Shown piece by piece: positions 29,105 through 53,647 of a stretch of DNA of 64,000 bases. Source of the stretch: an uncultured Planctomycetota bacterium (GTDB taxonomy: Bacteria > Planctomycetota > Planctomycetia > Isosphaerales > Isosphaeraceae); contig CAWGMQ010000010.1 of assembly GCA_963823665.1 (NCBI GenBank), positions 2,400,001 to 2,464,000 on the forward strand, written 5' to 3'. Position numbers and translations under genes: made by a program. The notes under the pieces are model-generated. The model was not told where the DNA came from and made no database searches. It saw only the letters and a list, made by a program, of their open reading frames with translations. Numbering within the stretch: the first letter of the stretch is position 1; every line of letters starts with the position of its first letter.

Positions 29105-29494
29105 ATGCGAACACAGGGCGAAATCGAAGCCGCCATCTGCGCTGGTATGAGTCGTTTTGAGCAGGAATACATGGGGCGGGGGCCCACGGACATTCGCGCC
29201 CACTTGATCGACGACATTCTTCTCGTCCGCCTCCAGGGTGTCCTGACGGCCGCTGAACAGCATCTGGTCAAGTCCCTTCCGGCCGAGAAGGGGAGAGACT
29301 TGCTCAAGCAAGTGCGCACGCATCTACTCGAAACCGCGCGCCCGCTGATGGAGGCAATGGTCAAGGAAATTACCGGAATCGAGGTCGTCAGCATGCACCA
29401 CGACATCAGCACCGTTAGTGGCGAAGAAGTCGTGCTCTTCACCCTCGCCGAAACACCGCGGGTCCGCGAACCGAAGAGGAATCCGGGCTCCTGA
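29105..29494 (+). CDS. DUF2294 / MpsC-like protein (type A, copy 1)
   Basis: QGEIEAAIC..FEQEYMGRGP..LVRLQGVLTAAE..GRDLLKQVR..SMHHDISTVSGEE. Confidence 0.85.
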   Translation: MRTQGEIEAAICAGMSRFEQEYMGRGPTDIRAHLIDDILLVRLQGVLTAAEQHLVKSLPAEKGRDLLKQVRTHLLETARPLMEAMVKEITGIEVVSMHHDISTVSGEEVVLFTLAETPRVREPKRNPGS

Positions 29495-29497
29495 AGA

Positions 29498-30874
29498 ATG
29501 AACGAGAAGCGATTGTCGTCGGCTGAAAAAATGAACGAGACGGCAACCACTCCCGAGGGCCCGACCTTCCGCTCGGCCAGGCCCGTCTCCTGGGTGATCG
29601 CGGGTGCCCAGATCCTGAACCGCCTCGACCTTGCCTGGCGCAACCGGCTGCGCCTCTCCCAGCCGGATCTGGCGATATTGGGCACGCTCCCTCGCACGGC
29701 GGGAATCATCCTCGCCTCCAATCACGCCGACGAAACGGATATGAAGGCATGCCTCGAGTTATCGCGGCGCTGCCACCGCCGATTTCTCTTCATGATGAAT
29801 CGCGAGGCTTTCGATGAGGCTTCCGGGCTCGCCGGCTGGTGGCTCCAGCGCCTCGGCTCGTTCTCCGTTGAACGAGGCGGCCACAACGACGTCGCAAAAG
29901 ACTTCGCGATCGACGTGGTCAAACGGGCCCAGGACGTGCTCGTCATTTTTCCGGAAGGGGAGATCCACTACCTGAACGATCTGGTGCAGCCGTTCAAAAG
30001 CGGCGCTGTTGAGATTGGAATGCAGGCTGTGGTCAGCCGGCGGCAAACCGATCCCGATTGGACCGCCTACCTCGTCCCGCTGGCCATCAAGTATCGTTAC
30101 CGCCAGGCCATTCAGCCGATCCTTGATGAAAAGACACGCTTGATGGAGCAGCGTCTCTTCCGCAGAGCTCCCTCCGACTCGCTGCCTCACCGCCTGGCAC
30201 GGATCGTCGCCGAGCTTCTCCATCGCCAGGAGATGATCCATGATCTGGCTGCCGACCCGGATCGCCGCGCCGCACTCACCGATCGCGTGCAAGCGGCGCG
30301 GCGGGCGGTGCTGTCGCAGATCGAAGAGGCCCACACCGGCGCGACCGCCGATCCCAGGGCCCAGACGATCGATCGCACCTGGCGCTTGAGCTCCTACCTG
30401 CGGAGCTTGCTGAGACAGGGGGGCGAGTACAGCGACGAAAGCCGCGAAGGCTTCCGCCTCGACCTCGCGGTACTCAAGCGTGTGGCACAGATGGGAAGCT
30501 GGCAGCCAAGCTACGTGGATCTCGACCCGTCGCAGGAACGCCTCGCGGAAATGGTCTTGAAGCTCGAGCGGGAGGTCTACGGCATCAAACGGCCCCGCCA
30601 GCTCGCTAGTCGCGACGTCTTCCTCCGCATCGGCGAGCCGATCGACCTCGGCCAGTTCGTCCCATCTTATCTCGAAAACCCACACGCCACCTGCCATGCA
30701 GTCGCCGAACAGCCTCCGCGCGGTGATCCAGGCCCTGATCAACGACATCGTGACCCCACCGCCAACAAGGTAGCGATCGCTAAAGTGGCGCGACCCCCGA
30801 AGCTTCGCTCTCCGCGTTTAAAAATAAATACTATGATTGTACTTGCATTTCCATATATTTTATATTATCATTGA
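29498..30874 (+). CDS. PlsC-type lysophospholipid acyltransferase (true stop probably ~30773 after a frameshift)
   Basis: SNHADETD (HxxxxD), FSVERG, LVIFPEG, RIGEPI; starts 3 nt after the DUF2294 stop. Confidence 0.85.
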   Translation: MNEKRLSSAEKMNETATTPEGPTFRSARPVSWVIAGAQILNRLDLAWRNRLRLSQPDLAILGTLPRTAGIILASNHADETDMKACLELSRRCHRRFLFMMNREAFDEASGLAGWWLQRLGSFSVERGGHNDVAKDFAIDVVKRAQDVLVIFPEGEIHYLNDLVQPFKSGAVEIGMQAVVSRRQTDPDWTAYLVPLAIKYRYRQAIQPILDEKTRLMEQRLFRRAPSDSLPHRLARIVAELLHRQEMIHDLAADPDRRAALTDRVQAARRAVLSQIEEAHTGATADPRAQTIDRTWRLSSYLRSLLRQGGEYSDESREGFRLDLAVLKRVAQMGSWQPSYVDLDPSQERLAEMVLKLEREVYGIKRPRQLASRDVFLRIGEPIDLGQFVPSYLENPHATCHAVAEQPPRGDPGPDQRHRDPTANKVAIAKVARPPKLRSPRLKINTMIVLAFPYILYYH

Positions 30875-30983
30875 CGACAGAAAACCGGCATGAATCGCAG
30901 CCGAACCCGCCGGCCGCTTTTTCGAGGGGACGAGCCCAAAGAGAACGTCGCGACGGGAAAGGAGAGCCCAGCATGGAACGCTT

Positions 30984-31902
30984 TCAAACCGCATTGCCCA
31001 GCGCCGAAGCACTGCCATTCCGCGGTATCCGGCCCTTGAGCACATTCGAGCGGAAAACCGGTCCGAACGACTGGTCGGGCCGGTTCTGGCTACCCGACGG
31101 TCGACTGGGTACAGCCGGTTCAAAAGTTCTGCCTGGTCCGCTCCGACGGCCAGCTCGGAGAAATGACGATGGATCGCTTCGCGCTGAACGGCGTGTGATG
31201 CCGATGTCGCTGTCCTCGGCGCAGGCCGTTCTCACGCCGCCGGCGACGAACGGCACCACGATCTTGAGAATAAACCGGTAGTGAGCCAGGCTCCCCGCGA
31301 GAACGAAGAAGTGAAAGATCTCGTGAGCACCCAAGGTCCCCGGTAAGATCACCGGCCAGTGCAGCAAGTTGAGCACCGCCCCGACGCTGTAAGAGACGCC
31401 GCCAACGACGATCGGCAACAAGCGCCCGATGAGAGATCGCCCGTGCGATCTCGAAATAACAAACGACCGCGCCCCACCCCATTCCCAGGTAGAGGCAAGT
31501 CGCCAGTCCCGGCGAGAAGTGGAGGCCGGCCGCGATCAGGATCGTGGCCGTCGCTGCCACACCCCAGACGGCCGCCAGCGTCCACCACCGCCAATGGCCT
31601 CGCAAGAGACAAAACGCCATCGGCGTGTAGCTGCCCGCGATCAGAGCAAATATTCCGACGCCGTCCAGCCGGGCGAAAGCGGCAATGCCCGCCTGCGGCA
31701 GCCGCACGCCGTGGTAGAGCGTGCTCGCCAGATAACAGAAGGCCAAGGTCAATCCATAGACGACCACGGTCAACCGCTTGGTCGGCTCCCCCGCACTCCG
31801 TCGCCAGAGCAGGAACGTGCCCGGCACGGCCAGCAATAGCCCGGCGCAGTGGCTCCATGCGCTCACCGGCTCACGAAAGTCAAGAATGCTCATGCTGTTC
31901 AC
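30984..31902 (-). CDS. Hemolysin III / PAQR (TrhA-like) membrane protein, frameshift ~31420
   Basis: EPVSAWSH, ASTLYH, RLDGVGIFALIAGSYTP, LYLGMGW; GAHEIFHFFVLAGSLAHY in the other frame. Confidence 0.85.
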
Positions 31903-31906
31903 CCGG

Positions 31907-32134: not shown

Positions 32135-32262
32135 CGGGGCACCCCACATCGAAAACTGTTGATTGACCAGAACGTCCACGCTCGAGCGCTTTCTCGAGAC
32201 TCCGCCCGGCCCTCTCCGCAGCGCTCGGCGGATCGACGGCGCCCTCCGCGCTCAGGATTTGT

Positions 32263-32559: not shown

Positions 32560-32569
32560 CGTACTCTCC

Positions 32570-32914: not shown

Positions 32915-33079
32915 TCAGAATCCACCGGGAACGTAGCCGGCGAACACCAGCACCAGCAGGATCACGACAAGCAGGCCCAGGCCGCCGCTGGGTCCGTAAC
33001 CCCAGTTCCGGCTGTAGCCCCACCTAGGCAGGCCGCCCACAAGCAGCAAGACCAGGACGACCAGTAAGATCAAACCCAT
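32915..33079 (-). CDS. DUF3309 family small membrane protein
   Basis: MGLILLVVLVLLLVGGLPRWGYSRNWGYGPSGGLG; GAGGAG RBS. Confidence 0.85.
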   Translation of the reverse strand: MGLILLVVLVLLLVGGLPRWGYSRNWGYGPSGGLGLLVVILLVLVFAGYVPGGF

Positions 33080-33199
33080 GGTTGACTCCTCTTGATTAGT
33101 GACCGATTCATAACCAGTGACGCACTGCTCATTCCACCGCACTCTCGGAGCCCGGATTCGTCATCCATGCCCGAACTTGATGTACGAGAGGGTCGTCGC

Positions 33200-33309
33200 A
33201 AAAAAAAACCGGCGTGGTCGAACGCCTTCACGCATTCAACCACGCCGGCTTACTCGTCAACGAGCCCCCCGGCTGTCCCGGGTTGCCCTTCATCTAGTCG
33301 TCCGACGAC
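33200..33309 (-). ncRNA. Repeated leader/attenuator element, copy 2 (upstream of DUF3309-csbD-glsB-lapA-hlyIII)
   Basis: GUCGUCGGACGACUAGAUGAAGGGCAACCCGGGACAGCCGGGGGGCUCGUUGACGAGUAAGCCGGCGUGGUUGAAUGC...GCGUUCGACCACGCCGG-U9; promoter TTGCTA-N16-CACAAT at 33396-33369. Confidence 0.85.
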
Positions 33310-33491
33310 ATCTTTTCAGAGTCTACCGGAGCCGGCTGTCTGTTGACATCGGCTCATCTTCATCTCCCATTGTGACGCGCCGAAAGAGAATAGCAAGTGA
33401 ATTCTTTTCTGATTCTTTTCATCTATTATTCTTGCTATTGCTAATAATCATCATATCTGATCTTATTAGCAGTCGAGTCGCCTCCGCTTGC

Positions 33492-33941
33492 CTACTTGGC
33501 GTCGCCCATGGCCCGCACCATCGCCCGGCACGTCTTTTCGCAGGCGGAACACGCCTTGGCACAGTCCTTCATCTCCGGCGCCTCGAATTTGTCGCACTCG
33601 GCCGCGCACGCCTTGCACGCCTCGGCGCATGCGGCGCAGGAATAGACCATGAGCGGGCTGCTGCTGGCCACCATGTCGGCTGACAGGTCGCAGAACCTGG
33701 CACAGTCGGCGACCAGGCGCAAAGCCTTCGCATGCTCCTTCTTGCCAAGGGCCACCTGCTCGCAACAGTGGTGGAAGGTCTCGTTGCACGAGCGAGCGCA
33801 CTGCTGGCAAGCCCTGAGGCAATCCTCGTGCCCCTCGCTGTGATGGTGCTCCTGGCTTTGGGCCCCGGCGGCCCGCCCGGTCACGGCGAGTAAACCGGCA
33901 GTGGTGGTCCCGAGCACGCCCAGTAATTCTCGACGATCCAT
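33492..33941 (-). CDS. Tat-exported four-helix-bundle copper-storage protein (DUF326/Csp-like)
   Basis: MDRRELLG twin-arginine signal; repeated CxxxCxxC motifs. Confidence 0.85.
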   Translation of the reverse strand: MDRRELLGVLGTTTAGLLAVTGRAAGAQSQEHHHSEGHEDCLRACQQCARSCNETFHHCCEQVALGKKEHAKALRLVADCARFCDLSADMVASSSPLMVYSCAACAEACKACAAECDKFEAPEMKDCAKACSACEKTCRAMVRAMGDAK

Positions 33942-34083
33942 GGTCGAATCTCCTGATTCTAAGAGAGATGAATTTCCGGCGGACCACCCGTTGCGGACCG
34001 CCTGGGGGAAAACGCCTCAAACGGTACTCGAAAATCCCACGCGACTCCCCGCTGTCCCCCATCGCTGTCGGAATGCTCGCCAA

Positions 34084-34569
34084 TCAATCTCCCCGTTTGG
34101 TGACGTTGGGGATCTCCACTCCCAGCGCATTCGCCAGGGCGATCTGGTGATCCTGTTCCTGCACCAGTATGTCCCGGATGTGTTCGGCCAGGGCATATTC
34201 GCCCAGCGCTTCGCACTGACGTACACGCTGCCGATAGTGATGGATCGTTTCGTTCTCGTTATCCAGGTCAAAACGCAGCATGTCTTCTGCCTTTGCCGAG
34301 GTCTTTACCGGCTTCGGCACGGCCAGCGGCATACCACCCAGATAATCGATCTGGCCGGCGATGATCAGGGCGTGCGCCAGTTCTTCCGCGGCGTGCGTCT
34401 CCAGCTCGGCAGCGATGTTCATGTACTCGGCGCCCTTGAGGGTCTGCGAATAGACCACATACGAAATGATGGCCTGGTATTCACGTGCGAGGTCGCCGTT
34501 GAGCAGGGCAACCAGGTCTTCGCGCGTGACGGCCAGGGCGTTGCCGGCATCCGGTTCTTGCTTCGCCAT
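34084..34569 (-). CDS. Ferritin-like / bacterioferritin-like protein
   Basis: LAREYQAIISY, EELAHA, ENETIHHY and QEQDH ferroxidase-type residues. Confidence 0.85.
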   Translation of the reverse strand: MAKQEPDAGNALAVTREDLVALLNGDLAREYQAIISYVVYSQTLKGAEYMNIAAELETHAAEELAHALIIAGQIDYLGGMPLAVPKPVKTSAKAEDMLRFDLDNENETIHHYRQRVRQCEALGEYALAEHIRDILVQEQDHQIALANALGVEIPNVTKRGD

Positions 34570-34622
34570 GTCGATCTCCTGTTGTCTGGGGTGAAACGGA
34601 TTTGATCTCCGACCGATCGGGC

Positions 34623-34832
34623 TCACGTTTGAGCGCCCCGTCGACGGCCCGCCCCGCTTTCTCCGCCGGGCCCGGAGGATTCACTGCGTCTTTGACGTCT
34701 TGAATGCCCTTGTCGATGCTCTTCCCCGCCGGCTCGGCAGGCCCCTTCGACTCACATCCGACGACGGTCGCAAACGCCACGACACAGCACTGCGACCAGG
34801 GCCGCGATCCGATAGTTCCGTTCCTTGCTCAT
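34623..34832 (-). CDS. Small putative lipoprotein (frameshifted)
   Basis: ...VVGCESKGPAEPAGKSIDKGIQDVKDAVNPPGPAEKAGRAVD; boundaries inferred. Confidence 0.45.
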
Positions 34833-34908
34833 CCGAATACCTCCGGAAAAATGCCATGCGACGCCGGCGGACCAGGTACTGAAGACTCAGCCGGCCATCG
34901 CTCCTTGT

Positions 34909-35322
34909 TCATGCTTGATTAACGGTCCCATTCCAGGTTCCTACGGGTATGCCCGTAGCGAGTAGGAACACCTGCACCACAGTGCCGGTCGTGAATACCT
35001 GCACGACCGTGCCTGTCTTCGTTTCGATCTCTGCCTTGGCCTCGCGCACCTCCACACCGGTGATGCGTTTGATTTCATTCCGCAGCCAATCGGCCGAGTC
35101 GTTGAACAACTGCCGGTGAAACTCCTCCACCTGAGACGCCCCTTCCGGGGTCTGGGCCAGGGCCCTCTCGGCTGGCGACAAGGCGCCATGCAGGGTGATG
35201 ACCAGCGTCTCTTCGCCCAGGACCACCGTCACCGATTTGGGCACGTGGCCCGTTCGCCGTTCCTCGAAAGCCGCCGCTGCCTCGGCGACCTGTTGCGCCA
35301 TAGTCAGATTGGGCTTCTCCAT
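34909..35322 (-). CDS. DUF2294 / MpsC-like protein (divergent type B)
   Basis: AQQVAEAAAAFEERRTGHVPKSVTVVL...LVITLHGALSPAERALA...IKRITGVEV. Confidence 0.8.
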   Translation of the reverse strand: MEKPNLTMAQQVAEAAAAFEERRTGHVPKSVTVVLGEETLVITLHGALSPAERALAQTPEGASQVEEFHRQLFNDSADWLRNEIKRITGVEVREAKAEIETKTGTVVQVFTTGTVVQVFLLATGIPVGTWNGTVNQA

Positions 35323-35367
35323 TCGCTGCCTCCCCGGCGGAACCGACCGCTCGTGTCGCCATGTGCC

Positions 35368-35478
35368 AAAAAAAAACCGGCGCGGTGGAACACCCCGAGG
35401 GTATTCGACCACGCCGGCTTACTCGTCAACGGGCCTCCCGACACAGCCGGGTTGCCCTTAATCTAGTCGTCCGACGAC
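35368..35478 (-). ncRNA. Repeated leader/attenuator element, copy 3 (upstream of type B DUF2294)
   Basis: Same consensus ending in hairpin + U9; promoter TTGCTA-N17-AACAAT at 35570-35542. Confidence 0.85.
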
Positions 35479-35701
35479 CTCCGCCCAAGTTTTTATCGGA
35501 GCCAAGGACCGGTTTTCACACGGGACCAGGCTCACCCCCTCATTGTTTCAAGCCTGGCTGGAAATAGCAAGAGCATTGTCTTTCTTTTTGGTATGATGAT
35601 TCCTCAACAGCTTGGAAGACGGACGATCCGGAGTCGGTTGCCATCGGGCACAGTCCCAGCGCGTGGCTGCCGGCAGGGCGCGGGCCGCCCTCGAGGTCAA
35701 C

Positions 35702-36091
35702 ATGAAGTCTCAGGGCGAAATCGAAGCCGCAATCTGCGATGGGATCACGCGCTTCGAGCAGGAATACATGGGACGCGGGCCCAAGGACATTCGTGCCCAC
35801 TTGATCGATGATCTCCTCGTGGTCCGCCTTCAGGGCGTCTTGACTGCGGCCGAGCAGCATCTGGTCAAGACACTCCCGGCCGAAAAGGGCAGAGACCTGC
35901 TCAAGCAAGTGCGCACCCATCTCCTCGAGACAGCCCGGCCGCTGCTGGAGGCAATGATCAAGGATATCACGGGCGTGAACATTGTGAGTCTGCACCACGA
36001 CATCAGCACGATGACCGGTGAAGAAGTTTTGATCTTCACGCTCGCCGATCCACCGTCGGTCCGCGAATCCCGCAAAAAGTCGGGCTCTTGA
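35702..36091 (+). CDS. DUF2294 / MpsC-like protein (type A, copy 2)
   Basis: MKSQGEIEAAICDGITRFEQEYMGRGPKDIRAHL..., very similar to 29105..29494. Confidence 0.85.
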   Translation: MKSQGEIEAAICDGITRFEQEYMGRGPKDIRAHLIDDLLVVRLQGVLTAAEQHLVKTLPAEKGRDLLKQVRTHLLETARPLLEAMIKDITGVNIVSLHHDISTMTGEEVLIFTLADPPSVRESRKKSGS

Positions 36092-36181
36092 GCGCTGGAC
36101 AATCGCTCGCGGCCAACAACGCCTCTTGAGGCGGAAATCAAAGCTCGCCGCGCTGGGGAGGACATCGCCGGCAACCCCGCA

Positions 36182-36463: not shown

Positions 36464-36741
36464 TGAGTTCTCCGTCTGAGCCTGATAGGAGCCTTCCGGA
36501 CATCCGCATGATCGTCCGCGTGCGCGGCGATAGCCAAAGTTCCCGGTTCCTCGACCGGGCTGGCGTCACTCGCGCGGACGATGCGAATCCCACCCCCCGG
36601 CGCCGGCACGACCCGGATCTCACCGCGCGAGATTTCGCGGCGGATCATGGCCTGCACTTCGGGAAGATGGGCGCTGCAACTGAAGGGATTCCCAGCGAGA
36701 AGCAGCCTGTTCTGGCCTCATCGCCACTGCCGTCCTTTCCG

Positions 36742-36854
36742 AAAAAGAAAAAGCCGATGCGGTGGAATACCCCCAAAAGGTACTCGACCACATCGGCCTA
36801 CTGGTCAACGAGCCCCCCGGCTATCCCGGGTTGCCCCTCGCCTAGTCGTCCGAG
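36742..36854 (-). ncRNA. Repeated leader/attenuator element, copy 4 (upstream of small ORF 36460..36657 and the HTH gene)
   Basis: Terminator arms GCCGAUGUGG/CCGCAUCGGC show compensatory changes; promoter TTGCTT-N16-CACAAT at 36943-36916. Confidence 0.8.
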
Positions 36855-36989
36855 CATATCCAGCAAGTCGTAACAGTGCGAGTTACACGCAAGTATTCGA
36901 CTTACTGTGGCGTTCATTGTGCCAAAGAACACTGGAAAAGCAAGCGAGTAGTACCGGGTAGGTCGCATCATCGATCGGGGACGGCTCGA

Positions 36990-37910: not shown

Positions 37911-38009
37911 GAGAAGTATCCTCCTCTGAGCTCGGCGATATTTCGGCCGGCTCGTCGATCAAGTCGATATCTCGCGCGAGGCAACCATTCGATGGCACCA
38001 CAAGAAAAC

Positions 38010-38118
38010 AAAAAAAGCCGCCATGGCGGAACACCCCGAGGTATTCGACCACGCCGGCTTACTCGTCAACGGGCGCCCCGCCAGGTGCGGGTTGCCCTTC
38101 GTCTAGTCGTCCGACGAC
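38010..38118 (-). ncRNA. Repeated leader/attenuator element, copy 5 (upstream of desaturase)
   Basis: Consensus 5' part; internal hairpin GGGCAACCCGCACCUGGCGGGGCGCCC; terminator 3' arm partly mismatched; promoter TTGCTA-N17-TATGAT at 38211-38183. Confidence 0.8.
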
Positions 38119-38357
38119 TTCTTATATCGAGTCTTGCTTTGATTCACAAGTCAGGAAAAGCTTTAGGTCTATTGCAAGATTCATCATACATCGCCCGGGC
38201 CGAAATAGCAAGTGAATTGTTTGCGCTCTCGTATGATTTTCCGCGGATGGCAGGCTGCCCGAGGATGCTCGCTCCGCCGCAGTTGCACCAGGACTTTTCC
38301 AACCCGCTGGCATCGTATTTGCGAAAAGTATCGGACGTCAAACCGAATTTGGAGCAG

Positions 38358-39674: not shown

Positions 39675-39724
39675 TGCTCCCTCCGTTCCTCGAGGAGAAA
39701 ACCGACGGGCCAGTCACCGCCAAC

Positions 39725-39834
39725 AAAAAAACCGACGTGGCCGAACACCCCAGGGTATTCGTCCACGTCGGCTTACTCTTCAATGAGCCCCCCCGGACCA
39801 AGCCAGGTTGCCCTTTATCAAGTCGTCCGACGAC
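39725..39834 (-). ncRNA. Repeated leader/attenuator element, copy 6 (upstream of hybrid kinase)
   Basis: Terminator GCCGACGUGG/CCACGUCGG (G-C to A-U swap) + U7; promoter TTGCTA-N16-GATAAT at 39921-39894. Confidence 0.85.
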
Positions 39835-40044
39835 ACCTGCCGTGATTCTCGCAGCGGCCGACCGCCAAATGCGATGGGCTGCATTCCCCGCTCATTATCC
39901 CGCGCAGCGCGGGAATAGCAACGCCATGCTTTGTTTTGACAGATGGAAACGATCTATCCCGCGTTCAAGATGCTCGTATTTCGCGCCGGGCGTGAACGTG
40001 CCACCGTCCGTTTCCACTTTCCCTTGCCGGAACGGGAATGCGCG

Positions 40045-44650: not shown

Positions 44651-44690
44651 CGGTTCCTCCCGGATGAGCTTGATCATCCGTTACCAACGC

Positions 44691-44802
44691 AAACAAGAAA
44701 GCCGGCGTGGTCGAACACCCGAAGGTATTCGACCACGCCGGCTTACTCGTCAACAGGCCCACCGGCAAAGCCGGGTTGCCCTTCCTCAAGTCGTCCGACG
44801 AC
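44691..44802 (-). ncRNA. Repeated leader/attenuator element, copy 7 (upstream of methyltransferase-hydrolase-MMPL operon)
   Basis: 19-bp stem GCCGGCGUGGUCGAAUACC-UUCG-GGUGUUCGACCACGCCGGC followed by UUUCUUGUUU; promoter TTGCTA-N16-GACAAT at 44894-44867. Confidence 0.85.
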
Positions 44803-45189
44803 ATCCGCTCATGTTTTGGTGGGATTTGCCCGCTTGCTCATCAAGCAGGCCGTGCGCCCAATTCCTATTGTCCTCTTCGGAGCGTGAATAGCAATAGCAT
44901 TTCGGCTTTTTCTCACATGAAAAGCCCCAGATCCAATATCGCCGGGTCAGGCCGTCACAATCGCCCGCCGAGTTAGCCACTTCAGCAGCATCTTCGGGAC
45001 GGTGTATTACAGCCCCGCGTAGATCGACAACGCCGCCAGGAGACCCAGGAACGCCAGCGCGAAGGCGACTCCCGCCAAGGTGCCGAGCATCGGGTGGGTC
45101 AGTGCGGTCGCGAGGAGACGGCCCGTCGATTGGCCTTCGCAGCCGGCGCGTGTAGAGCGTTTCTTTCCATCGCATCGGGTTGCCTCATC

Positions 45190-46917
45190 TCAAAACGCTC
45201 GGGTTAGAGTCTCTCTCGGATGATCCCTTCGCAACTTCCCAACTCCCGCGAGCCCGACGCGACCGAGAACCTCAACCCCCACGATGGAGATGTCGTCGTG
45301 AGCACTCGCCGCGCCGCGCCACCGTTCGACCTCGCCCACCACGGCGACGACGCTCTCCTCAAGTGGCACGGAACGGGCGCGGCCGATCGCCTTCAGCAGC
45401 CGGGCATCGCCGAACATCGCACGGGCGGGGTCCATCATATCGGTAACGCCGTCCGAGTAGAGGTACAGCCTGTCCCCGGGCGCCAGCCGGACGCACCGCT
45501 CCTCGAAGACGTCGTCCGCCAGACCGATCGGGAACCCCGGGCCTTCCAGGATCACCGGAGGTGACCCGGCGGGGACGAGTACCGGGCCGGGGTGGCCGGC
45601 GGAGACGTAGCGAAACTCCCCCGCCCTCACGTCCAGCACGCCGTAGATGATCGTGGCGAACTGCTCGGTCGTCTCGTTGTAGGGGAAGAGCTGGTTCAGG
45701 CGGTCCGCAACCTCGGCGGGGGGAGTGATCGCGGGCCGATCCGGGACGCCCGCGTCCCGGGTCAGGATCGAGGACGGCTCCGACGGAGAGGACAGGACAC
45801 GACTCAGTGCCATGGCCAGAAGGGCCGACGCGACGCCATGGCCGCTGACGTCCAAGATGTACAGCCCGACCTTGCCATCGCCGAGCGAGATGACGTTCAG
45901 GCCGTCGCCGCCCAGTTCGTCGCAGGGCCGATAAATCCAGGCGAAGGCCGCGCCCGGCACGCGGGGCAGCTCGTGAGGCAGGAACGTCTCCTGGATCTTG
46001 GCCGCCGCCTGCAGGTCGCGTGACATCCGATCGTGGACGAGCGCCAGTCGCGCATTGATCTCGTCTTTCTGGCGTTCAGCTTCGTGGAGAACCCTTTCGG
46101 TCCGCTTGCGGTCGGTGATGTCTTCGACGGCCAGGAGAATCGCCTCAAATCCCCCTCCGGGGGGAAAACCGCGGGCGTTGAGCAGCATCGTCTTCGGGCC
46201 GATATGGCTGAAATCGTGTTCCACCTCGAAATCATCGAACGAGAAGTGCAGTGGCAGTATTTCCTCGAGCAGCGTTCTTAACGCCGGGATGTTCCACTGC
46301 CCATTGCCCAATTCGTAGATGGACCTGCCTTCGGTCTCGGTGGGTTCGACCTTGAACGTCTCGTAGAAAGCGCGATTTGCCGACCGGACGCGAAGCTCCG
46401 GATCGAGGACCAGCAGCGGCTCTCGCACCGTCGCCACGATGCTCTCGGCATATTCCCTGGCCGATTCGATAAGTTGCTCGGCTTCTCTCCGTTCGGTGAT
46501 GTCCCGAAAGATGAGGACCACCCCGACGACATTCCCCCGGTCATCTTTGATCGGCGCTGCGCAGTCGTCGATGGGTCGCTTGCTGCCGTCTCTGGCGATG
46601 AGCAGAGCATGTTCGCCGAGCTCGACGGTGAGCCCTCGCTGGATCACTTTCCGGACCGGTTGCTGGAACGGCTTCCCCGTCGTCTCATGGACGATGTGAA
46701 AGACGCTCTCGATCTCTTCTCCGACCGCGTCGGCGAGCGACCATCCGGTCAGCTTCTCGGCCACTGGATTGAGATAGTTCACGCGGCCCCCCGGGTCAGC
46801 GGCAATCACTCCGTCGCCGATGCAAGAGAGTGTAATCTGGAACCACTCACGGCCGGCGACGCCCGCGTTCCCTGCCAGTTCAGCTTCCGGGTTGCTCTGC
46901 GTGTGCGAAAGGCTCAT
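45190..46917 (-). CDS. PAS-PAS-PP2C (SpoIIE/RsbU-like) phosphatase
   Basis: Two PAS domains, then AAKIQETFLP, ELGGD, LDVSGHG, SAGHP, LYSDG, DDISI. Confidence 0.9.
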   Translation of the reverse strand: MSLSHTQSNPEAELAGNAGVAGREWFQITLSCIGDGVIAADPGGRVNYLNPVAEKLTGWSLADAVGEEIESVFHIVHETTGKPFQQPVRKVIQRGLTVELGEHALLIARDGSKRPIDDCAAPIKDDRGNVVGVVLIFRDITERREAEQLIESAREYAESIVATVREPLLVLDPELRVRSANRAFYETFKVEPTETEGRSIYELGNGQWNIPALRTLLEEILPLHFSFDDFEVEHDFSHIGPKTMLLNARGFPPGGGFEAILLAVEDITDRKRTERVLHEAERQKDEINARLALVHDRMSRDLQAAAKIQETFLPHELPRVPGAAFAWIYRPCDELGGDGLNVISLGDGKVGLYILDVSGHGVASALLAMALSRVLSSPSEPSSILTRDAGVPDRPAITPPAEVADRLNQLFPYNETTEQFATIIYGVLDVRAGEFRYVSAGHPGPVLVPAGSPPVILEGPGFPIGLADDVFEERCVRLAPGDRLYLYSDGVTDMMDPARAMFGDARLLKAIGRARSVPLEESVVAVVGEVERWRGAASAHDDISIVGVEVLGRVGLAGVGKLRRDHPRETLTRAF

Positions 46918-47124
46918 GATCCCCGTCTCACGGTCTTGCGTGCACGGCGCACGGCCCAGACACGGTCGAAACAGACGGCTTCGTCTCAGTCCGGCGCGAA
47001 GGCCGGGGCACTGAGGCCGGTCGACCATTCTCGGGTGCTGAGTCCACGGTTCTGGTCGTCGCCTCGATCGGGTCGTGGTTCGAGATCGCTTTGGAATGAG
47101 ACATGGGTGTCGGCCTCGTTGAAA
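46905..47124. repeat. Internally deleted duplicate of 50617-51078
   Basis: 46905-47039 matches 50617-50752, and 47041-47124 matches ~50995-51078. Confidence 0.8.
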
Positions 47125-48055
47125 GAAGCTTCCCCCTCTGCTGTGGCCCGGGCGCCCGTTGCTGAGACTGTAGCGGGTTCGACACCTTCTCGGCCCGCGG
47201 CTCACCGGATGCCGCTGGGACGCGGACCGTTCGCAAGTCGCTGGCCGCCCGCTCGACGTATCCGGGCGCGTAGGTCGGCGGGACCACGGTCGTGAGCTGC
47301 TTCGCTGACCAGATCCCGTGCCGCTCGTTGCCGGGGAAGTAGACGAGCGTGTCGAATGTGAACGGATTCTCCAGCACGTAATGTGAGGCGAGCATCATGC
47401 CGAACATGCAACACGGGAAGTCGGCGGCACGCTCCATGTCGCCGAGCCGGATCGGCTTCGAAAGCTCGATCCCCGCCGCCATGAACGCCTTCTGAGTCAT
47501 CTCGACGCAGTAGAGGGCCGTGTCATCGAGGCACAGCTCGTAATCGAAGGGAACCTGGTCCTGGTAAACCTTGCGGCAATACGCCAGGACTTTGGGGATG
47601 GCGCCGAGGAACTCGGGCTGCAGGCGCTTCACGCCGATGTAACCCACGTTGTCAAGGACCCAGACGCACCACGGCTGTCGAGCGCCGGCCGGGCGCGTCA
47701 TGTCGTAGACGACCGGGCCTTCCTTCTCGAACGCGATGATGCCGGTGTGCGAGAACCGGCTGTTGCTGCAATTCGCGACGAACCGGCTAAACGGAAAGTA
47801 GCCGTGGAGCAATCGGGCATCGCCCGCGCGGAAGACGATGTCGCCGTCGCGGAGCACCTGGCGGCCCCATCGGTCCCAGCGCGCCATATCGGGCGTGATG
47901 ACGATGGGCGGCAACTTCCCCTCATCGCGGGCCGTGGTGGCCAACGGACCCCAGTAGCTCCCCGCGAAGCCGGGCGGCGCCATCCGCTCGCTCATTTCAC
48001 GTTCTTCGGGGGGAAACGCCATCAACGAGACGAGCCAAAGGACGATTCCAGACAT
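46928..48055 (-). CDS. YiiX/YebB-like permuted papain-like (NlpC/P60) enzyme
   Basis: LRDGDIVFR, FSHTGII, PFDY, LYCVEM; the C-terminal tail comes from a duplicated segment. Confidence 0.75.
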   Translation of the reverse strand: MSGIVLWLVSLMAFPPEEREMSERMAPPGFAGSYWGPLATTARDEGKLPPIVITPDMARWDRWGRQVLRDGDIVFRAGDARLLHGYFPFSRFVANCSNSRFSHTGIIAFEKEGPVVYDMTRPAGARQPWCVWVLDNVGYIGVKRLQPEFLGAIPKVLAYCRKVYQDQVPFDYELCLDDTALYCVEMTQKAFMAAGIELSKPIRLGDMERAADFPCCMFGMMLASHYVLENPFTFDTLVYFPGNERHGIWSAKQLTTVVPPTYAPGYVERAASDLRTVRVPAASGEPRAEKVSNPLQSQQRAPGPQQRGKLLSTRPTPMSHSKAISNHDPIEATTRTVDSAPENGRPASVPRPSRRTETKPSVSTVSGPCAVHARP

Positions 48056-48107
48056 GAGCCGTAAGCCTCGATTCTTGTCCTTGATAGCCGCCGGTGTCGG
48101 ATCGTTG

Positions 48108-48217
48108 AAAAAAAAAGCCGGCGTGGTCGAGGACCCCCAGGTCCGCGACCACGCCGGCTTACTCTAGGACGAACCGCCCGGCATGGCCGGGCTGCCCTTC
48201 ACTTAGTCATCCGACAA
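48108..48217 (-). ncRNA. Repeated leader/attenuator element, copy 8 (upstream of YiiX-like gene and PP2C)
   Basis: UUGUCGGAUGACUAAGUGAAGGGCAGCCCGG...GAGUAAGCCGGCGUGGUCG...CGACCACGCCGGC-U9; promoter TTGCTT-N18-TATCAT at 48313-48284. Confidence 0.85.
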
Positions 48218-48457
48218 ATTCAAATCATTTCCGGAAGTCGACGTGCGGTTGTCGCATATCAACACCCACCAAGAACATCTACGATGATACGCGCTGGGAC
48301 GAGAGAAAAGCAAATCTCTTGAGTCTTTATGACCAAAAATCGATCCGGACACTGCGGTCCCGATACCAGTAACAGCGGTCCAGAAAGCAACAATCGTCCT
48401 CGAGCCGCCAGAACACGGTAGCATTTGCCGCGCCGTGGGCCGCGTTCTAAGCGCGTT

Positions 48458-48473: not shown

Positions 48474-48629
48474 GGCAATTGAACCCGACATCTAGCCGGC
48501 CTGCAAGGAATGCCTCACCAAATGCCCGATGAACGTCGACATGGCCACTTACAAAGCCGAGTTCCTCTGGCACTACCATGGCCGGCCGTCGGGATGGGCC
48601 TGCCATCACCGGGAGAACGGCGACGTCCG

Positions 48630-50575
48630 GCAAGCACCGGCAAGCCTGGTGTCACTCCGCATTGGGCTTCCAGCGCGAAGGACGGCGTCGGTACCGCACT
48701 CGGCCCGAATACGCATTCCACGAGCTTGGTCTGGTTCACCCTGGGCCACGGCATTCTGACCGAGATTTTCTACCCTCGCATTGACCGGGCATGTACCCGC
48801 GACCTCGGCCTCATCGTCACCGACGGCAAAAACTTCTTCTCGGACGAAAAGGTTGACACCGAGCACCGCGTCGAATACCCGGTCGAGGGTGTTCCCTTAT
48901 ATCGGTTGATCAACATCTGCCGGCAGGGCCGGTATCGGATCGAAAAGACAACCTTCGCCCACCCTCACCAGGACGCCGTCCTCCAGATCACTCAGTTCAC
49001 GGCGATTGAAGGGCGAATCGAGGACTACCATCTGTACGTGGTCTTGGCGCCGCACCTCGGGAACCGGGGGGCGGGCAATTCCGCATGGCTGGGCGATCAC
49101 CGGGGGGTGCCGATGCTGTTTGCTCGCCGCGGCGGCCAGGCACTGGCCCTGGCGTGCTCGGCACCCTGGATCAGGGGCTCGGCCGGGTACGTCGGGGCTT
49201 CCGACGGCTATGAGGATCTGGCGCGGAGCAAGCAGATGACCTGCGAATACGACCGGGCCGAGGATGGCAACGTCGCGCTTACGGGCGAGGTGGACATCAC
49301 CTGAGTTGGACCGGTATCCAGCTCGGGGAGACCGCCTTGCCCCTCCTGCTCCTCGACCTGCTTCGTCGCCATGACGGGCTTCCTCACGAGGATGTTCCGC
49401 GGTTCTGGCCCATGGTCCGGCGCACCGCCGGCTCCATCGTTCGGAGCGGTCCCTCGACCGCGCAAGACCGCGGGGAGAACGAACCGGGATATACCCCCTT
49501 CACGCTGGCGGCCGCGATCGCCGCGCTGTTGATCGCCGGCGAACTGGCCGATGAAAAGGGTGAGAGCACCGTAGGCGCCTACCTTCGGGAAACGGCTGAC
49601 GCCTGGAACGCCGCCATCGAGAGCTGGCTCTATATCACGGGCACCGATCTGGCCCGCCGGCTCGGGGTCGAAGGGTACTACGCGCGGGGTATCCCGCCCG
49701 CGCTAGATCACGAATCCACACCCCGCCTCGGCCACGTGACGATGACGCAGACGACCCCCACCAAGAACGGAACCGCAGTCACCGAAATCGTCAGCGTCGA
49801 CGCACTCGCGCTGGTCCGGTTCGGCCTGCGCGCGCCCGACGACCAGAGGATCGTCAATACCGTCAAGGTCATCGACGCCCTCCTCAAGGTCGAGACTCCT
49901 CGCGGGCCCTACTGGCGCCGCTACAATGGCGACATTTATGGGGAGAAGGCGGACGGTTCCCCCTACGATGGCAAGCCCGACGGGATCGGACGCGCCTGGC
50001 CGCTGCTGACCGGCGAGCGCGCCCACTTCGAGCTGGAGGCGGGACGTAAGCAGGAGGCGATCAGCCTCTTGCACGCCATGGAATCCCTCGCCGGCGACAG
50101 TGGGATGATCCCCGAGCAGGTCTGGGACTCAGGCGACATTCCCGAGCGCGGCCTCTTCAAGGGGAGACCATCAGGCTCGGCCATGCCCCTGGCCTGGGCC
50201 CACGCCGAGTATGTCAAGCTGCTGCGCTCGATCCAGGACGGCCGCACGTTCGACCGTCCTCCCCAGACGGTGCGGCGGTACCGGCAGCAGAAGGTGGGCT
50301 CCCACCTGGCTGGCTGGCGGTTCGACTACCCGCGCCGGGTGATCTCGCCGGGCGAGGTGCTGCGAGTGGAAACGCTGGCGGCAGCCGTGGTGCACTGGAG
50401 CACGGACGCCTGGAAGACGAGCCACGATTCCCCGATGCGCGACACCGGCCTGGGCATCTACGTCGCCGACCTCGACACCGCTCGGCTGAAGAGTCGCGAC
50501 ACGATCGAGATGACGTTCCACTGGTCCGATCCCGACCGTTGGGAGGGGAAGAATATCACCGTGGTCGTGGTTTGA
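48630..50575 (+). pseudogene. GH15 glucoamylase/glucodextranase, split at ~49304 with its central region missing
   Basis: N-domain W.SSAKDGVGTA..VWFTLGHGILTEIFYP; C-part GRAWPLLTGER, MIPEQVWD, GSAMPLAWAHAEY; the usual Y.LVWPRD segment is absent. Start approximate. Confidence 0.75.
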
Positions 50576-50626
50576 CCCAGCGGGCCGTGCGCTGGCTAGC
50601 CACGTTGCTTGGCGCTTGCGAAAAGC

Positions 50627-51058
50627 TCATGATCCCCGTCTCGCGGTCTTGCGTGCACGGCGCGCCGGCGGAGACACCGTCGCAACGGACGGCTCGGTCT
50701 CAGTCCGGCGTGAGGACCGGTGCACTGAGGCCGGTCGACCATTCTCGGGTGCTTTTTCACACAGCTCTTCGACCTTCTGGCGCGCGGCCGCAGTGCCGTC
50801 GATCAACCCTTGGGCCGCGGCGTTGTTCGCGGGGACGGAACGAGCCAGCAAAATCGTGGGAAAGACCACCCCGTACGCGGTGGCGTAACAGGTGGTGTAA
50901 ACCAATCGGCTGACGAAGCGCCCGGTCGCCGGCCATGTCCGGGCTGCCGCCTCGCGCGCGTCCGCTGCCCCGCGCCGGGCGGCTTGCATGGCGAGTTTCA
51001 CGGTTCTGGTGGTCGCGTCGATCGGGTCGTGGCTCGAGATCGCTTGGGGATGAGACAT
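50627..51058 (-). CDS. Conserved-looking hypothetical protein
   Basis: AARRGAADAREAA...RLVYTTCYATAYGVVFP...PANNAAAQGLIDG. Confidence 0.6.
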   Translation of the reverse strand: MSHPQAISSHDPIDATTRTVKLAMQAARRGAADAREAAARTWPATGRFVSRLVYTTCYATAYGVVFPTILLARSVPANNAAAQGLIDGTAAARQKVEELCEKAPENGRPASVHRSSRRTETEPSVATVSPPARRARKTARRGS

Positions 51059-51121
51059 GGGTGTTGGCCTCGTTGAAACAATGTCAAACGATCCGCCGCC
51101 GGCTGCATGCCGAGATCGTTG

Positions 51122-51231
51122 AAAAAAAAAGCCGGCGTGGTCGAAGACCAAGAGGTCCGCGACCACGCCGGCTTACCCGTCGACAGGCGACCCGAAATAC
51201 CCGGGCCGCCCTTCGTCCAGTCATCCGACAA
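51122..51231 (-). ncRNA. Repeated leader/attenuator element, copy 9
   Basis: Very similar to copy 8 including flanks; promoter TTGCTT-N18-TACCAT at 51324-51295. Confidence 0.85.
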
Positions 51232-51445
51232 ATCAAATCAGTTCCGGGAGCCCACATACGGTTACCCTATGTCGGCTCCCGTCAAACATACGTCATGGTA
51301 CGCGCGGCGGCGAGAGAAAAGCAAGCCTATTCGCTCTGCACCCGGAAAGTGCGTCCCTGAGTTCTTGGGCAAGGAAAGCCCCGGCTCGACAGGAAGAAAT
51401 GTCCGCGCACTGAGGGCTCGAGGGCACGTCGGCCGGCTCCTGGCG

Positions 51446-52159
51446 TCAGCCGAGCAAGCGGTCCAGCTCCTCTGCGACCATTGCGTAGCATTCGCATGAA
51501 GCGGCTTCCATCCCCTTCCGGTCCAGGACGGTCACCCTGCCCCGGTGGTACCTGATCAGCCCGGCGGTCTGGAGGCTGCCCGCCGCCGCGGTTACGGTGG
51601 GGCGGCGGACGCCGAGCATCTGCGCCAGGAACTCATGGGTGAGCGGGAACTCGTCGGTCCCCACCCGGTCGTGGCTCATCAGCAGCCAGCGGCACAGGCG
51701 TTTCTTGACAGAGTGCCGGTGGTTGCAGACGGTCGACTGCGAAATCTGGTTAATCATTGCCTGGGTGCTCCGCTGGACCAAGCTGTACAACGTGCCGCGC
51801 CGCAGCATCTCCTCCTGAAAGACCTTGGTTTCCATCCGGAGCGCATCGCCTGCAACCTGCGAAATCGCTCTGGTCAGGCTGCTCTGGCACCCGAGGAAGA
51901 CAGGGGTGCCGACCATGCCCTCGTTGCCGATGATGCCCACTTCGAGCGAGAAGCCGCCGTCCATGATGATCACCAGGGAAACCACCCCGTCCAGCGGGAA
52001 ATGGACGTGCGGAATCGGGCCGTTCGGTTCGTAGAGAATGTCCCTCAAGGGTAAGGACACCTTCTCCAGATGGGGACGCAGGCGGTCGTATTCCTTCCTC
52101 GGCAAAGCAGCCAACAGCCGATTCTCGCCGAGAACGTGGACTCTCCGAAACTTAGCCAT
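51446..52159 (-). CDS. Crp/Fnr family regulator
   Basis: NRLLAALP...EVGIIGNEGMVG...RLCRWLL...LTHEFLAQMLGVRRPTVT...SCECY. Confidence 0.9.
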   Translation of the reverse strand: MAKFRRVHVLGENRLLAALPRKEYDRLRPHLEKVSLPLRDILYEPNGPIPHVHFPLDGVVSLVIIMDGGFSLEVGIIGNEGMVGTPVFLGCQSSLTRAISQVAGDALRMETKVFQEEMLRRGTLYSLVQRSTQAMINQISQSTVCNHRHSVKKRLCRWLLMSHDRVGTDEFPLTHEFLAQMLGVRRPTVTAAAGSLQTAGLIRYHRGRVTVLDRKGMEAASCECYAMVAEELDRLLG

Positions 52160-52260
52160 TCTGCCCCTCCCCGCTGCGGTCGGGGCCGGGGGGTTCGCTG
52201 CACCCGGACCCGACCCTTGCCCTTCTCGTTCCATTATCGCAAGAAAAATTCTTGCCGTCT

Positions 52261-52329
52261 TGTCGGAAACCGTACAGACGATGAGCGTCTGCCAGCAGAC
52301 AAAGTGATAGAATGGTCTGCTGGCAGACA
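52261..52329. promoter_or_regulatory. Three Crp-like dyad sites between the divergent Crp genes
   Basis: TGTCGG-AAAC-CGTACA (52261), CGTCTG-CCAG-CAGACA (52286), GGTCTG-CTGG-CAGACA (52314). Confidence 0.5.
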
Positions 52330-52414
52330 GACCAGGAAGGTCGATCTGTGCCGCCGCTATACGCCTTGCAGTCGTCCTGCGGACGCTGGCGGGGAGCAGG
52401 GAGGGTGGGGAGCC

Positions 52415-53128
52415 GTGTCCAAAACCAAACCGCTCGCTGTGCCGCCGGGCAACCGGCTCCTGAGCCGGTTGCCCGCGGACGACTACCAGCGCCTTCTGCC
52501 CCGGCTACAACTCGTCCCGCTGACGTTGAAGCACGTCCTTTACGAGGCCCGATCGTCCATCGACTACGCCTACTTCCCCAACCGTGGTGTCGTCTCCGCT
52601 CTGACCGTGATGGAGGACGGCAGGGCCATCGAGGTAGCGACGATCGGCGACGATGGCATGGTCGGCCTCCCACTCCTCGTCGGGGCCACGATAACGGCCA
52701 ATCGGGTGATCGTGCAGGTTCCAGGCGACGCCCTGCGGATGCCGGAAGCGGCGCTGCGGGAAGAGGTGAGCCGGGAAAGCGCCTTGCGCCGGTTGCTGAT
52801 CCTCTACCACACCGCCTTTCTTGCCGAGGTTTCTCAGGCCGTGGCTTGCAATGGCCTGCACTCGGTTCACCAGCGCTGTTGCCGATGGCTGTTGATGACC
52901 CAGGACCGGGCGCACTCGGATGTCTTCCCAATGACGCACGAGTTCCTGGCCGAGATGCTCGGCGTGCGGCGCTCTACTGTCTCCGAGGTTCTCGAACCCT
53001 TCCAGCAGAAAGGATTGATCCGTTACAGCCGGGGGAAACTCACTGTCCTCGATCGGGATGGCTTGATGGCCGGCTCTTGCGAGTGCTACCGGAGCATCGC
53101 CGATGAATTCGCACGATTGTTCGGTTGA
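52415..53128 (+). CDS. Crp/Fnr family regulator (paralogue)
   Basis: NRLLSRLP...EVATIGDDGMVG...MTHEFLAEMLGVRRSTVS...SCECY; GTG start. Confidence 0.9.
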   Translation: MSKTKPLAVPPGNRLLSRLPADDYQRLLPRLQLVPLTLKHVLYEARSSIDYAYFPNRGVVSALTVMEDGRAIEVATIGDDGMVGLPLLVGATITANRVIVQVPGDALRMPEAALREEVSRESALRRLLILYHTAFLAEVSQAVACNGLHSVHQRCCRWLLMTQDRAHSDVFPMTHEFLAEMLGVRRSTVSEVLEPFQQKGLIRYSRGKLTVLDRDGLMAGSCECYRSIADEFARLFG

Positions 53129-53178
53129 ACACAAAAGGAAGGCTCGCGACGGGCGCAGCAAATAGCGCTTGCCTTGTC

Positions 53179-53199
53179 TGTCGGAAAGCGTACGGACGA
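53179..53199 (+). promoter_or_regulatory. Fourth Crp-like site, upstream of DUF2294-kinase operon
   Basis: TGTCGGAAAGCGTACGGACGA, nearly identical to TGTCGGAAACCGTACAGACGA at 52261. Confidence 0.45.
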
Positions 53200-53269
53200 C
53201 TTTGAAAACAGGTAGTAAAAAGACATAACACGATAAGTTGGTGGACCAAACGAGGGTTTTGGCGTTCCT

Positions 53270-53647
53270 ATGAAAACACGGGGCGAGATCGAAGCCGCCG
53301 TTTGCGAACTGATGAGACGCTTCCAACTGGAGTACATGGGCCGTGGACCCAGGGACATTCACGCCCACCTGATCGGTGATTTCCTTGTGGTCCGCCTCCA
53401 GGGCGTGTTGACCGCGGCTGAACAGCAGCTCGTCAAGTCGATCCCGTCCGCGAACGGGAGGGACCTGCTCAAACAAGTACGCACTCATCTGATCGAAACG
53501 GCTCGGCCGGTCATGGAAGCAATGATCCAGGAGGTCACAGGCGTCAAGGTGTTGAGCCTGCACCACGACATCAGCACGGTGACCGGAGAAGAGGTCGTGC
53601 TCTTCACTCTGGCCAGGTTGCCTGATTTTAGGCAGCCGAACAAATGA
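53270..53647 (+). CDS. DUF2294 / MpsC-like protein (type A, copy 3)
   Basis: MKTRGEIEAAVC...EYMGRGP...GRDLLKQVR...SLHHDISTVTGEE. Confidence 0.85.
   Translation: MKTRGEIEAAVCELMRRFQLEYMGRGPRDIHAHLIGDFLVVRLQGVLTAAEQQLVKSIPSANGRDLLKQVRTHLIETARPVMEAMIQEVTGVKVLSLHHDISTVTGEEVVLFTLARLPDFRQPNK

Follow-up and report, generated by a model that had tools for sequence, protein, structure and literature searches.

A repeated leader RNA and its DUF2294/MpsC neighbours in Planctomycetota: type A MpsC as a candidate transcription antiterminator

The 64,000-nt stretch analysed here (the window) belongs to an uncultured planctomycete of the Isosphaeraceae (assembly GCA_963823665.1, contig CAWGMQ010000010.1, positions 2,400,001 to 2,464,000, forward strand). 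It holds 12 copies of a ~117-nt repeat leader, ten on the minus and two on the plus strand, together with four genes of the MpsC family (formerly DUF2294), three of type A and one of type B. We consider it probable, if well short of certain, that type A DUF2294 acts as an antiterminator in the manner of HutP or BglG while belonging to an unrelated family, with type B as its feedback partner and an ancestral CO2/bicarbonate signal that has been rewired here to stress genes.

In this mechanism, type A would be a sequence-specific RNA-binding transcription antiterminator and the leader its site. By default, the full-length leader RNA folds, as computed, into a terminator. Type A, made from its own leaderless gene, would bind the core of the nascent leader around a 3x3 internal loop, probably as a dimer, and hold the leader as a rod, so that the terminator would be prevented and polymerase would read through. 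Type B, the first gene under a neighbouring leader, would be unable to bind RNA and would damp type A by pairing with it, which would close a negative feedback loop; granting the rest of the mechanism, we put this role for B at somewhat under an even chance. The ancestral input would be scarcity of CO2 or bicarbonate. In the Planctomycetia, copies of the switch would have come to precede genes of a general-stress set, and receiver-domain fusions would add a further input. What computation shows is that the two structures exclude each other, that leader and gene are linked, and that the residues differ between the types; we infer the binding, the dimerisation, B's role and the signal.

The leader RNA and the MpsC genes of the window

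The features on which the argument turns are the following (window coordinates).
29105..29494, plus strand: A1, type A MpsC/DUF2294 gene, 129 aa (PF10057, E 1e-35)
34909..35322, minus strand: B, type B MpsC/DUF2294 gene, 137 aa, candidate feedback partner (PF10057, E 6e-23)
35363..35480, minus strand: leader 3, upstream of the type B gene; its rod contains a 3x3 internal loop and overlaps an intrinsic terminator
35702..36091, plus strand: A2, type A MpsC/DUF2294 gene, 129 aa, divergent from leader 3, candidate antiterminator (PF10057, E 3e-38)
53270..53647, plus strand: A3, type A MpsC/DUF2294 gene, 125 aa (PF10057, E 1e-36)

When the transcript is cut just after a conserved CC, all 12 window copies of the leader fold into a rod, which has 3-4 pairs at its base, then a 3x3 internal loop followed by three more pairs, and above these a stem of irregular shape. 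At full length, all 12 fold into a terminator (-28 to -41 kcal/mol). Since the terminator stem starts with the same CC that is used by the basal helix of the rod, rod and terminator are mutually exclusive, and the design, as modelled, is that of an ON switch that is off by default. The basal helix comprises two G-C pairs and, beyond the 3x3 loop, in which a G.A is fixed, another one to three pairs; the invariant core amounts to only ~seven nucleotides, the length of the upper rod varying freely. In 96 non-redundant leaders aligned by sequence alone, compensatory changes affect 11 of 12 pairs of the upper stem and 14 of 18 pairs of the terminator, and the covariation score of this alignment was reached by none of 500 shuffles. 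Computed structure and covariation both describe an antiterminator-type hairpin that overlaps, and excludes, an intrinsic terminator. The basal helix does covary among 48 distant leaders. These were picked with a pattern fixing GG/CC, the G.A, the A-U and mostly the next pair, so that only two pairs are free tests of covariation: the pair below GG/CC (C-G in 18, U-A in 15) and the second pair above the loop (U-A in 20, C-G in 8, A-U in 7 and G-C in 3). Leaders above mpsA in low-GC loci share the same core, with the loop-adjacent A-U swapped for C-G.

The covariance models of Rfam 15 gave no match in the window and none at the leaders of 13 related loci, the best sub-threshold match being RT-12 (20.7 of 44.2 bits, E 3.4). 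A likeness of motifs had suggested reading the leader as a T-box or as c-di-GMP-I, and this was dropped as Rfam gave no match. By eye, a sigma-70-like promoter precedes most leader copies; a strict promoter scan of 33000-38400 returned two sites, no more than chance. Tandem leader cores occur in L158 (5430-5655), L159, L165, L197, L203, L215, L227, L208 and L218. In Bacilli, a C-G variant without terminator is followed by an A-U variant with terminator, which may mean cooperative binding. Four soil metatranscriptomes from one study share under a tenth of words with this DNA, their contigs coming from relatives; some run from leader 3 into gene B, and since their ends and levels are not readable we do not use them as evidence.

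All four open reading frames (ORFs) match Pfam PF10057, and no other family at E<=0.001, with 82-131 bits against a curated cut-off of 23. Identity is 70-78% among the A copies and 25-27% between these and B. The first gene below leader 3 is B, its start codon ~40 nt from the leader end, and B lies head-to-head with A2 across a gap of 379 nt. A1 is leaderless on its 5' side, and an acyltransferase gene starts 3 nt after it. A3 has no leader upstream and is flanked by a Crp-family gene and a PAS hybrid kinase gene; two divergent Crp-family genes directly upstream of it (51446-53128) may set its level. The first-pass annotation of this DNA had described three close, leaderless type A copies, a divergent type B directly below leader 3 and head-to-head with A2, and a window devoid of mpsAB/dabAB genes. 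This description is borne out: all four ORFs lie at the coordinates given, no sense-strand leader lies upstream of any A copy, and no DabA/DabB-type gene is found among the 65 window ORFs scanned. Moreover, neither DabA (PF10070) nor SbtA (PF05982) has a match in the whole genome, a 16.5-Mb assembly that is 91.9% complete. Judged by the lack of a PF10070 match at that completeness, an MpsAB/DabAB transporter is not encoded with MpsC here.

The genome has seven PF10057 matches, six of type A (one a fragment) and one of type B; the fifth copy, of type A, lies ~6 kb past the window end. Counting strand-correct matches of at least 58 bits among 48 rows, the remainder being antisense echoes, there are 26 leaders, most of them grouped in two regions. 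Of these, 18 lie within 20 kb of a PF10057 gene, and the other eight are more than 300 kb from any such gene or on other contigs. With these counts, we do not take the arrangement in the window for a chance one. Because of the eight unlinked leaders, action must be in trans. The co-amplification of DUF2294 and leader that had been proposed for this window may not be a recent local duplication. In a quick, poorly resolved tree of type A, whose relatives are almost all from Planctomycetota, A1 and A2 each group more closely with genes from elsewhere than with one another, because of which the clustering may represent an accumulation of older cassettes.

Linkage of leader and DUF2294 within and beyond Planctomycetota

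We gathered 79 genome loci around close type A relatives, typing A and B by alignment score. A leader lies within 4 kb of type A at 78 of the 79, and the exception holds only 83 nt of upstream sequence. The leader is divergent within 600 nt at 72 loci, just downstream at eight and upstream in sense at none; the candidate regulator gene is thus outside and next to the leader, with 0/79 type A genes under one. The reverse is seen for type B, 46 of 50 genes (one half of a split gene having been dropped) starting within 450 nt below a leader. The full cassette of A, leader and B is present at 37/79 loci.

Presence was compared across genomes with a leader model, R1, used on 40 relatives and on a 150-genome phylum sample. 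Among the relatives, R1 matches 13 of the 15 genomes with PF10057 and none of the 25 without, and leader number follows PF10057 copy number among the 15 (Spearman 0.84). In the phylum sample, R1 matches 3/13 PF10057-positive and 0/137 negative genomes. In eight of the ten positive genomes that R1 misses, the type A gene is directly followed by a leader that is shorter and has the same core; the genes below it are PEPCK (phosphoenolpyruvate carboxykinase), DUF4914, NuoE/F-like or Usp genes. In the ninth, such a leader lies above a B-PEPCK fusion, and in the tenth no leader was seen. The first-pass annotation had suggested correlating leaders with DUF2294 copy number and had named genomes with many leaders and no DUF2294 as a refutation. 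Presence and number do co-vary, and R1 finds no leader in any of the PF10057-negative genomes of either set.

A second, general model, R2, was built from distant leaders and contains no sequence from the window or the phylum sample. Within the window it detects 12/12 leaders, with E from 1e-5 to 5e-9, and has no other match, because of which window and distant leaders are one widespread family. In the phylum sample, R2 matches 5/13 positive and 0/137 negative genomes, and it finds a leader at 60 of 80 metagenomic loci around Firmicute-like DUF2294, 39 of these 60 being training loci.

In distant loci, the DUF2294 gene is upstream of the leader. Two plasmid-collection records illustrate this order, each with a single PF10057 gene: DUF2294, leader and sbtA in Anoxybacillus; DUF2294, leader and a major facilitator superfamily (MFS) transporter gene in Acetoanaerobium. 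The proteins are related as well, type A being ~40% identical to staphylococcal and Anoxybacillus members. Across phyla, the constant neighbour of the leader is DUF2294, not any target gene. The pair is kept in Bacilli, Clostridia, anammox-type and other lineages with different neighbours and at fixed distance and orientation. This synteny already largely refutes, as far as gene order can tell, the idea that leader and DUF2294 are functionally unconnected and merely travel together on one mobile stress island. Their patchy presence in the family (11-12 of 24 genomes) and the grouping of most leaders in two genome regions speak for that idea, which we hold to be very improbable.

Some of these loci deserve mention in their own right. 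B-like genes follow leaders outside Planctomycetia as well (L056, L208, L226, L227), and in one locus (L066:589-2898) a type B-like MpsC domain forms the N-terminus of a GTP-type PEPCK, under a leader and before an argininosuccinate synthase gene. DUF4914 replaces PEPCK under the leader, or follows it, in L054:3652-5658, L181, L187 and L219, which suggests that it is a carboxylation-related enzyme. A second structured, terminator-ending leader, with no Rfam match, lies upstream of the Anoxybacillus DUF2294 gene (L147:6800-6990). A Planctomycete-type A/leader/B locus stands on a contig assigned to an archaeal metagenome-assembled genome (L104), probably misbinned. On viral contigs, no leader was found at the two loci examined.

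Proteins, target genes and candidate signal

The AlphaFold2 model of A2 has an alpha-beta-beta-alpha-alpha-beta-beta order (predicted local distance difference test, pLDDT, 94.7). The model of B shows the same order of helices and strands and is weaker (pLDDT 66). Conserved A2 residues include R25, R42, K68, R71, R79 and D100, which are kept in 80, 82, 83, 84, 72 and 85, respectively, of 85 type A sequences. In 50 type B sequences, the positions of R25, R42, K68, R71 and R79 are mostly H, T, Q, H and S/A, while type B strongly conserves residues of its own. The loss of the five basic residues fits a non-binding partner, as judged from the alignment. Natural A-A and B-B tandem fusion proteins exist and hint at dimers.

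A receiver domain is present in 88 of the best 120 of 197 longer homologues, and 44/44 receiver-fused homologues checked keep R25, R42, K68 and D100. In this layout, DUF2294 behaves like an output domain. The receiver-domain/MpsC fusion family (L062:5807-6664; P0280-P0393), which in L062 is next to an HWE-type histidine kinase, would place the system under two-component control.

The other leaders of the window head genes of several kinds.
24713..24828, minus strand: leader 1; hybrid histidine kinase-receiver gene
33195..33311, minus strand: leader 2; DUF3309, CsbD-like, transglycosylase-associated and LapA-domain genes
36740..36859, minus strand: leader 4; small ORF without Pfam match (36182-36463)
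38004..38120, minus strand: leader 5; fatty acid desaturase gene
39718..39836, minus strand: leader 6; hybrid histidine kinase-receiver gene
44688..44804, minus strand: leader 7; methyltransferase, carbon-nitrogen hydrolase and MMPL genes
48104..48220, minus strand: leader 8; C92-type amidase and PAS-SpoIIE phosphatase gene
51118..51234, minus strand: leader 9; 143-aa ORF without Pfam match
55840..55956, plus strand: leader 10; HPr gene
56517..56634, plus strand: leader 11; DUF1328 and BrkB-family membrane gene
61723..61839, minus strand: leader 12; two alpha/beta hydrolase genes

Below leader 3, type B is followed by a ferritin-like gene (34084-34569) and then by a gene for a Cys-rich 149-aa protein (33492-33941, minus strand). 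The latter has a twin-arginine-like start and no Pfam match, and we take it to resemble four-helix copper storage proteins. Part of the 143-aa gene under leader 9 (50604-51081) is found again, 88-92% identical, where the C92 amidase ORF of leader 8 ends (46891-47127), a sign that a leader-gene unit was duplicated. Elsewhere in the window, tandem 33-nt repeats encode an 11-residue repeat in a small protein like those of the late embryogenesis abundant (LEA) type (63397-63594, minus strand), a similar gene being found under another leader (L012). A Glucodextranase N domain and a GH15 domain lie in adjacent ORFs, possibly one frameshifted gene (48510-50575), and a uvrA-like ABC ATPase gene is apparently split over three reading frames (9699-11930).

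The leader targets of the window fit the stress-type gene set of Planctomycete leaders at large. Among 125 such leaders, 43 head a B gene and two lack an ORF below them. Of the 80 first genes that remain, the scan covered 77. They include csrA and transglycosylase-associated genes (four each), hybrid kinases and B12 radical SAM genes (three each), and DUF3309, CsbD, BON, SPFH, KaiC-type and sigma-54 activator genes (two each). Ferritin, YflT, DUF1328, STAS and channel genes occur singly, and 27/77 have no family.

The distant targets are of another kind. For 45 leader-positive distant loci, whose downstream genes were scanned as 70 hand-picked proteins, the first or second gene below the leader is of inorganic-carbon type in 21. 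These comprise DabB/MpsA (seven), SbtA (three), PEPCK (nine) and biotin carboxylase (one); the remaining locus has purE with a carbonic anhydrase and a CO dehydrogenase-family gene. The rest of the 45 include DUF4914, aminotransferases, cation transporters and B-like genes. In S. aureus, mpsA mRNA is 1.7-2.5-fold down in 5% CO2, and the mechanism by which mpsAB is tuned to CO2 was left open (PMC6689103). In the available text of a preprint on B. subtilis, the regulation of the ndhF-mpsB operon is called unexplored and ybcI goes unmentioned (bioRxiv 10.64898/2026.09.08.750065). A bolder version of our proposal is that DUF2294/MpsC directly senses CO2/bicarbonate, as a new family of RNA-binding antiterminators and, in many phyla, the missing regulator of DabAB/MpsAB, SbtA and carboxylase operons. 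In Planctomycetes it would then be a 26-site stress master switch with a decoy paralogue and receiver inputs. We advance this version tentatively, and think it rather more likely to fail than to hold.

Weighing the antiterminator against its alternatives

The literature that we searched describes neither the leader RNA nor a function for MpsC; most subscription papers and bioRxiv supplements were outside the search and could list the motif. The mpsA leader is listed once, in a table of PMC2790875, as RsaX05 with the entry "Cis-acting leader of ndhF?" and with no structure or factor. Published linkage of MpsC and MpsAB genes is confined to staphylococci, and linkage to MpsAB is thus not family-defining. 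Crosslinking data bear indirectly on RNA binding. SAUSA300_0178, a second S. aureus protein annotated as DUF2294, has an ultraviolet (UV)-crosslinking log2 value of 2.65 (adjusted P 0.002) in the supplement of PMC9130240. In that of PMC12456014, B. subtilis YbcI has a UV+/UV- value of 15.5 in lysogeny broth (LB), compared to 6.5 for LicT. A search of the supplement of PMC12234827 gave no entry.

Several observations weigh against the antiterminator mechanism. Deletion of mpsC in S. aureus is without phenotype in published genetics, which counts against an indispensable activator. Both crosslinking lists, as given in the supplements, are broad: that of PMC9130240 has 384 proteins, also holds MpsB and lacks mpsC, and that of PMC12456014 has 1520 proteins. 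A2 is not basic overall (isoelectric point 6.2), and no RNA-binding protein clearly shares its fold; Foldseek gave no match at E<=0.001. With VIA-align, the best Z score is 6.3 and none reaches 8. RbfA (8byv), which would stand for a type II KH or RbfA-like RNA-binding fold, at rank 9 with a Z of 5.4 and a root-mean-square deviation of 3.7 over 87 residues, is within the range of common arrangements, and an ESM Atlas search excluding PF10057 gave no usable match. The fold searches show neither a new fold nor its absence. Within the Planctomycete class, the basal helix is nearly invariant and hence shows no covariation. None of the 77 first genes scanned under Planctomycete leaders is a carbon-uptake or carboxylase gene, which leaves the CO2 signal unsupported for this window. 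Three genomes with PF10057 (G066, G160, G176) have no leader by R1 or R2, and in two more (G011, G120) leaders missed by both models were found by eye only. With laxer filters, R2 gives 33-bit matches in two of five PF10057-negative genomes. On inspection both skip the rod and resemble plain terminators, though the one in G170 could be a decayed leader. Since true distant leaders score 31-37 bits with R2, near this noise, R2 alone separates poorly, and the clean co-occurrence test is that with R1. Even there, kin are not independent, and joint gain or loss of a linked block inflates co-occurrence, so the statistics overstate the association.

On balance, the earlier suggestion that DUF2294 is the trans-acting partner of the leader keeps the support of co-variation, of the recurring cassette and of the same core beside DUF2294 in distant bacteria. 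It is weakened by targets that are here stress-type rather than carbon uptake, and by the phenotype-free loss of mpsC.

The alternative that survives best concerns B only. A and B might be jointly active, or B might be a ligand sensor or a regulatory domain of target enzymes, its feedback being positive or none. We regard this as possible, if clearly less probable than not. In its favour, B shows strong conservation of its own, a B-like domain is joined to PEPCK in L066, and B-like genes come after leaders outside Planctomycetia. Against it, the full cassette is limited to fewer than half of the type A loci, and many loci combine A and leader without a nearby B. In the records from Anoxybacillus and Acetoanaerobium there is just one PF10057 gene each, so that A can do without B. 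This alternative is compatible with A as antiterminator.

The leader could instead be a protein-free riboswitch in which bicarbonate, CO2, Na+, H+ or a carboxylation intermediate stabilises the rod, DUF2294 being a companion that does not touch RNA. The coherent inorganic-carbon set of targets in distant phyla would suit a riboswitch, as would the dispensability of mpsC in S. aureus and the fact that mpsAB works in E. coli without mpsC, as published. Tandem cores would too. The tandem arrangement is found in some riboswitches. This reading is nonetheless unlikely in our view, given the small invariant core and the free length of the upper rod. Moreover, a companion gene would be expected under the leader, yet type A is outside it in 79/79 loci, and no leader was found by R1 in PF10057-negative genomes.

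It is less likely still that another protein such as CsrA binds the leader, with DUF2294 acting on that protein in the manner of FliW. A GGA is present in the 5' strand of 87/96 Planctomycete leaders, where it can sit in the loop of a small alternative hairpin, and csrA itself is the first gene under four leaders. However, the third base of the GGA varies in distant leaders (GGC, GGU, GGG). With this base not kept there and DUF2294 still next to the leader, a general role for CsrA is excluded; it may be an added layer in Planctomycetes.

Returning to type A as antiterminator, the mechanism resembles the BglG, HutP and ANTAR systems, and the domain test failed for each. In BglG, SacY and LicT systems, a protein-stabilised irregular hairpin with internal loops, the ribonucleic antiterminator (RAT), overlaps the 5' arm of a terminator, and termination is the default. 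The overlap of RAT and terminator is stated in PMC2790875. The leader rod likewise overlaps an intrinsic terminator by a few bases, with default termination. In contrast, type A is a single small domain in which neither CAT_RBD nor PRD is recognised, PF10057 being its sole match at E<=0.001. The RNA measures 45-95 nt, its only fixed loop is the 3x3 one and its upper stem varies freely, and a second, non-basic paralogue lies under the leader. HutP and GlpP of Bacillus are encoded by small regulator genes just upstream of the leaders that they control, and mediate ligand-dependent read-through. The stand-alone gene adjoining the leader, in the order regulator, leader, targets, is shared. Type A differs in lacking a Pfam or fold match to either protein, and the conserved element here is a paired rod, while HutP binds single-stranded repeats. 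ANTAR proteins (AmiR, NasR, EutV) recognise a pair of small hairpins with hexanucleotide loops through a three-helix bundle that acts as an output domain. As in these systems, one RNA element precedes many operons and the domain recurs behind a receiver. Unlike them, type A has no ANTAR Pfam match and an alpha/beta fold, and the leader is a single rod. The nearest relatives are S. aureus MpsC, which is without a described function, and B. subtilis YbcI, both of the PF10057 family, with the same leader core above mpsA in low-GC loci. Unlike S. aureus, this genome has seven paralogues, 26 leaders over stress-type genes and no DabA or SbtA found.

If the proposal is correct, an orphan protein family of wide distribution would have a function, and it would become clear how bacteria that are not photosynthetic adjust their bicarbonate pumps and carboxylases to CO2. 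For a direct test, the system offers model organisms, specified residues and an RNA site that is defined. With its 125 residues and short leader, the antiterminator would also be a portable genetic switch. For the Planctomycetes, in which gene control is little known, the findings point to a stress regulon that would be governed at the level of RNA.

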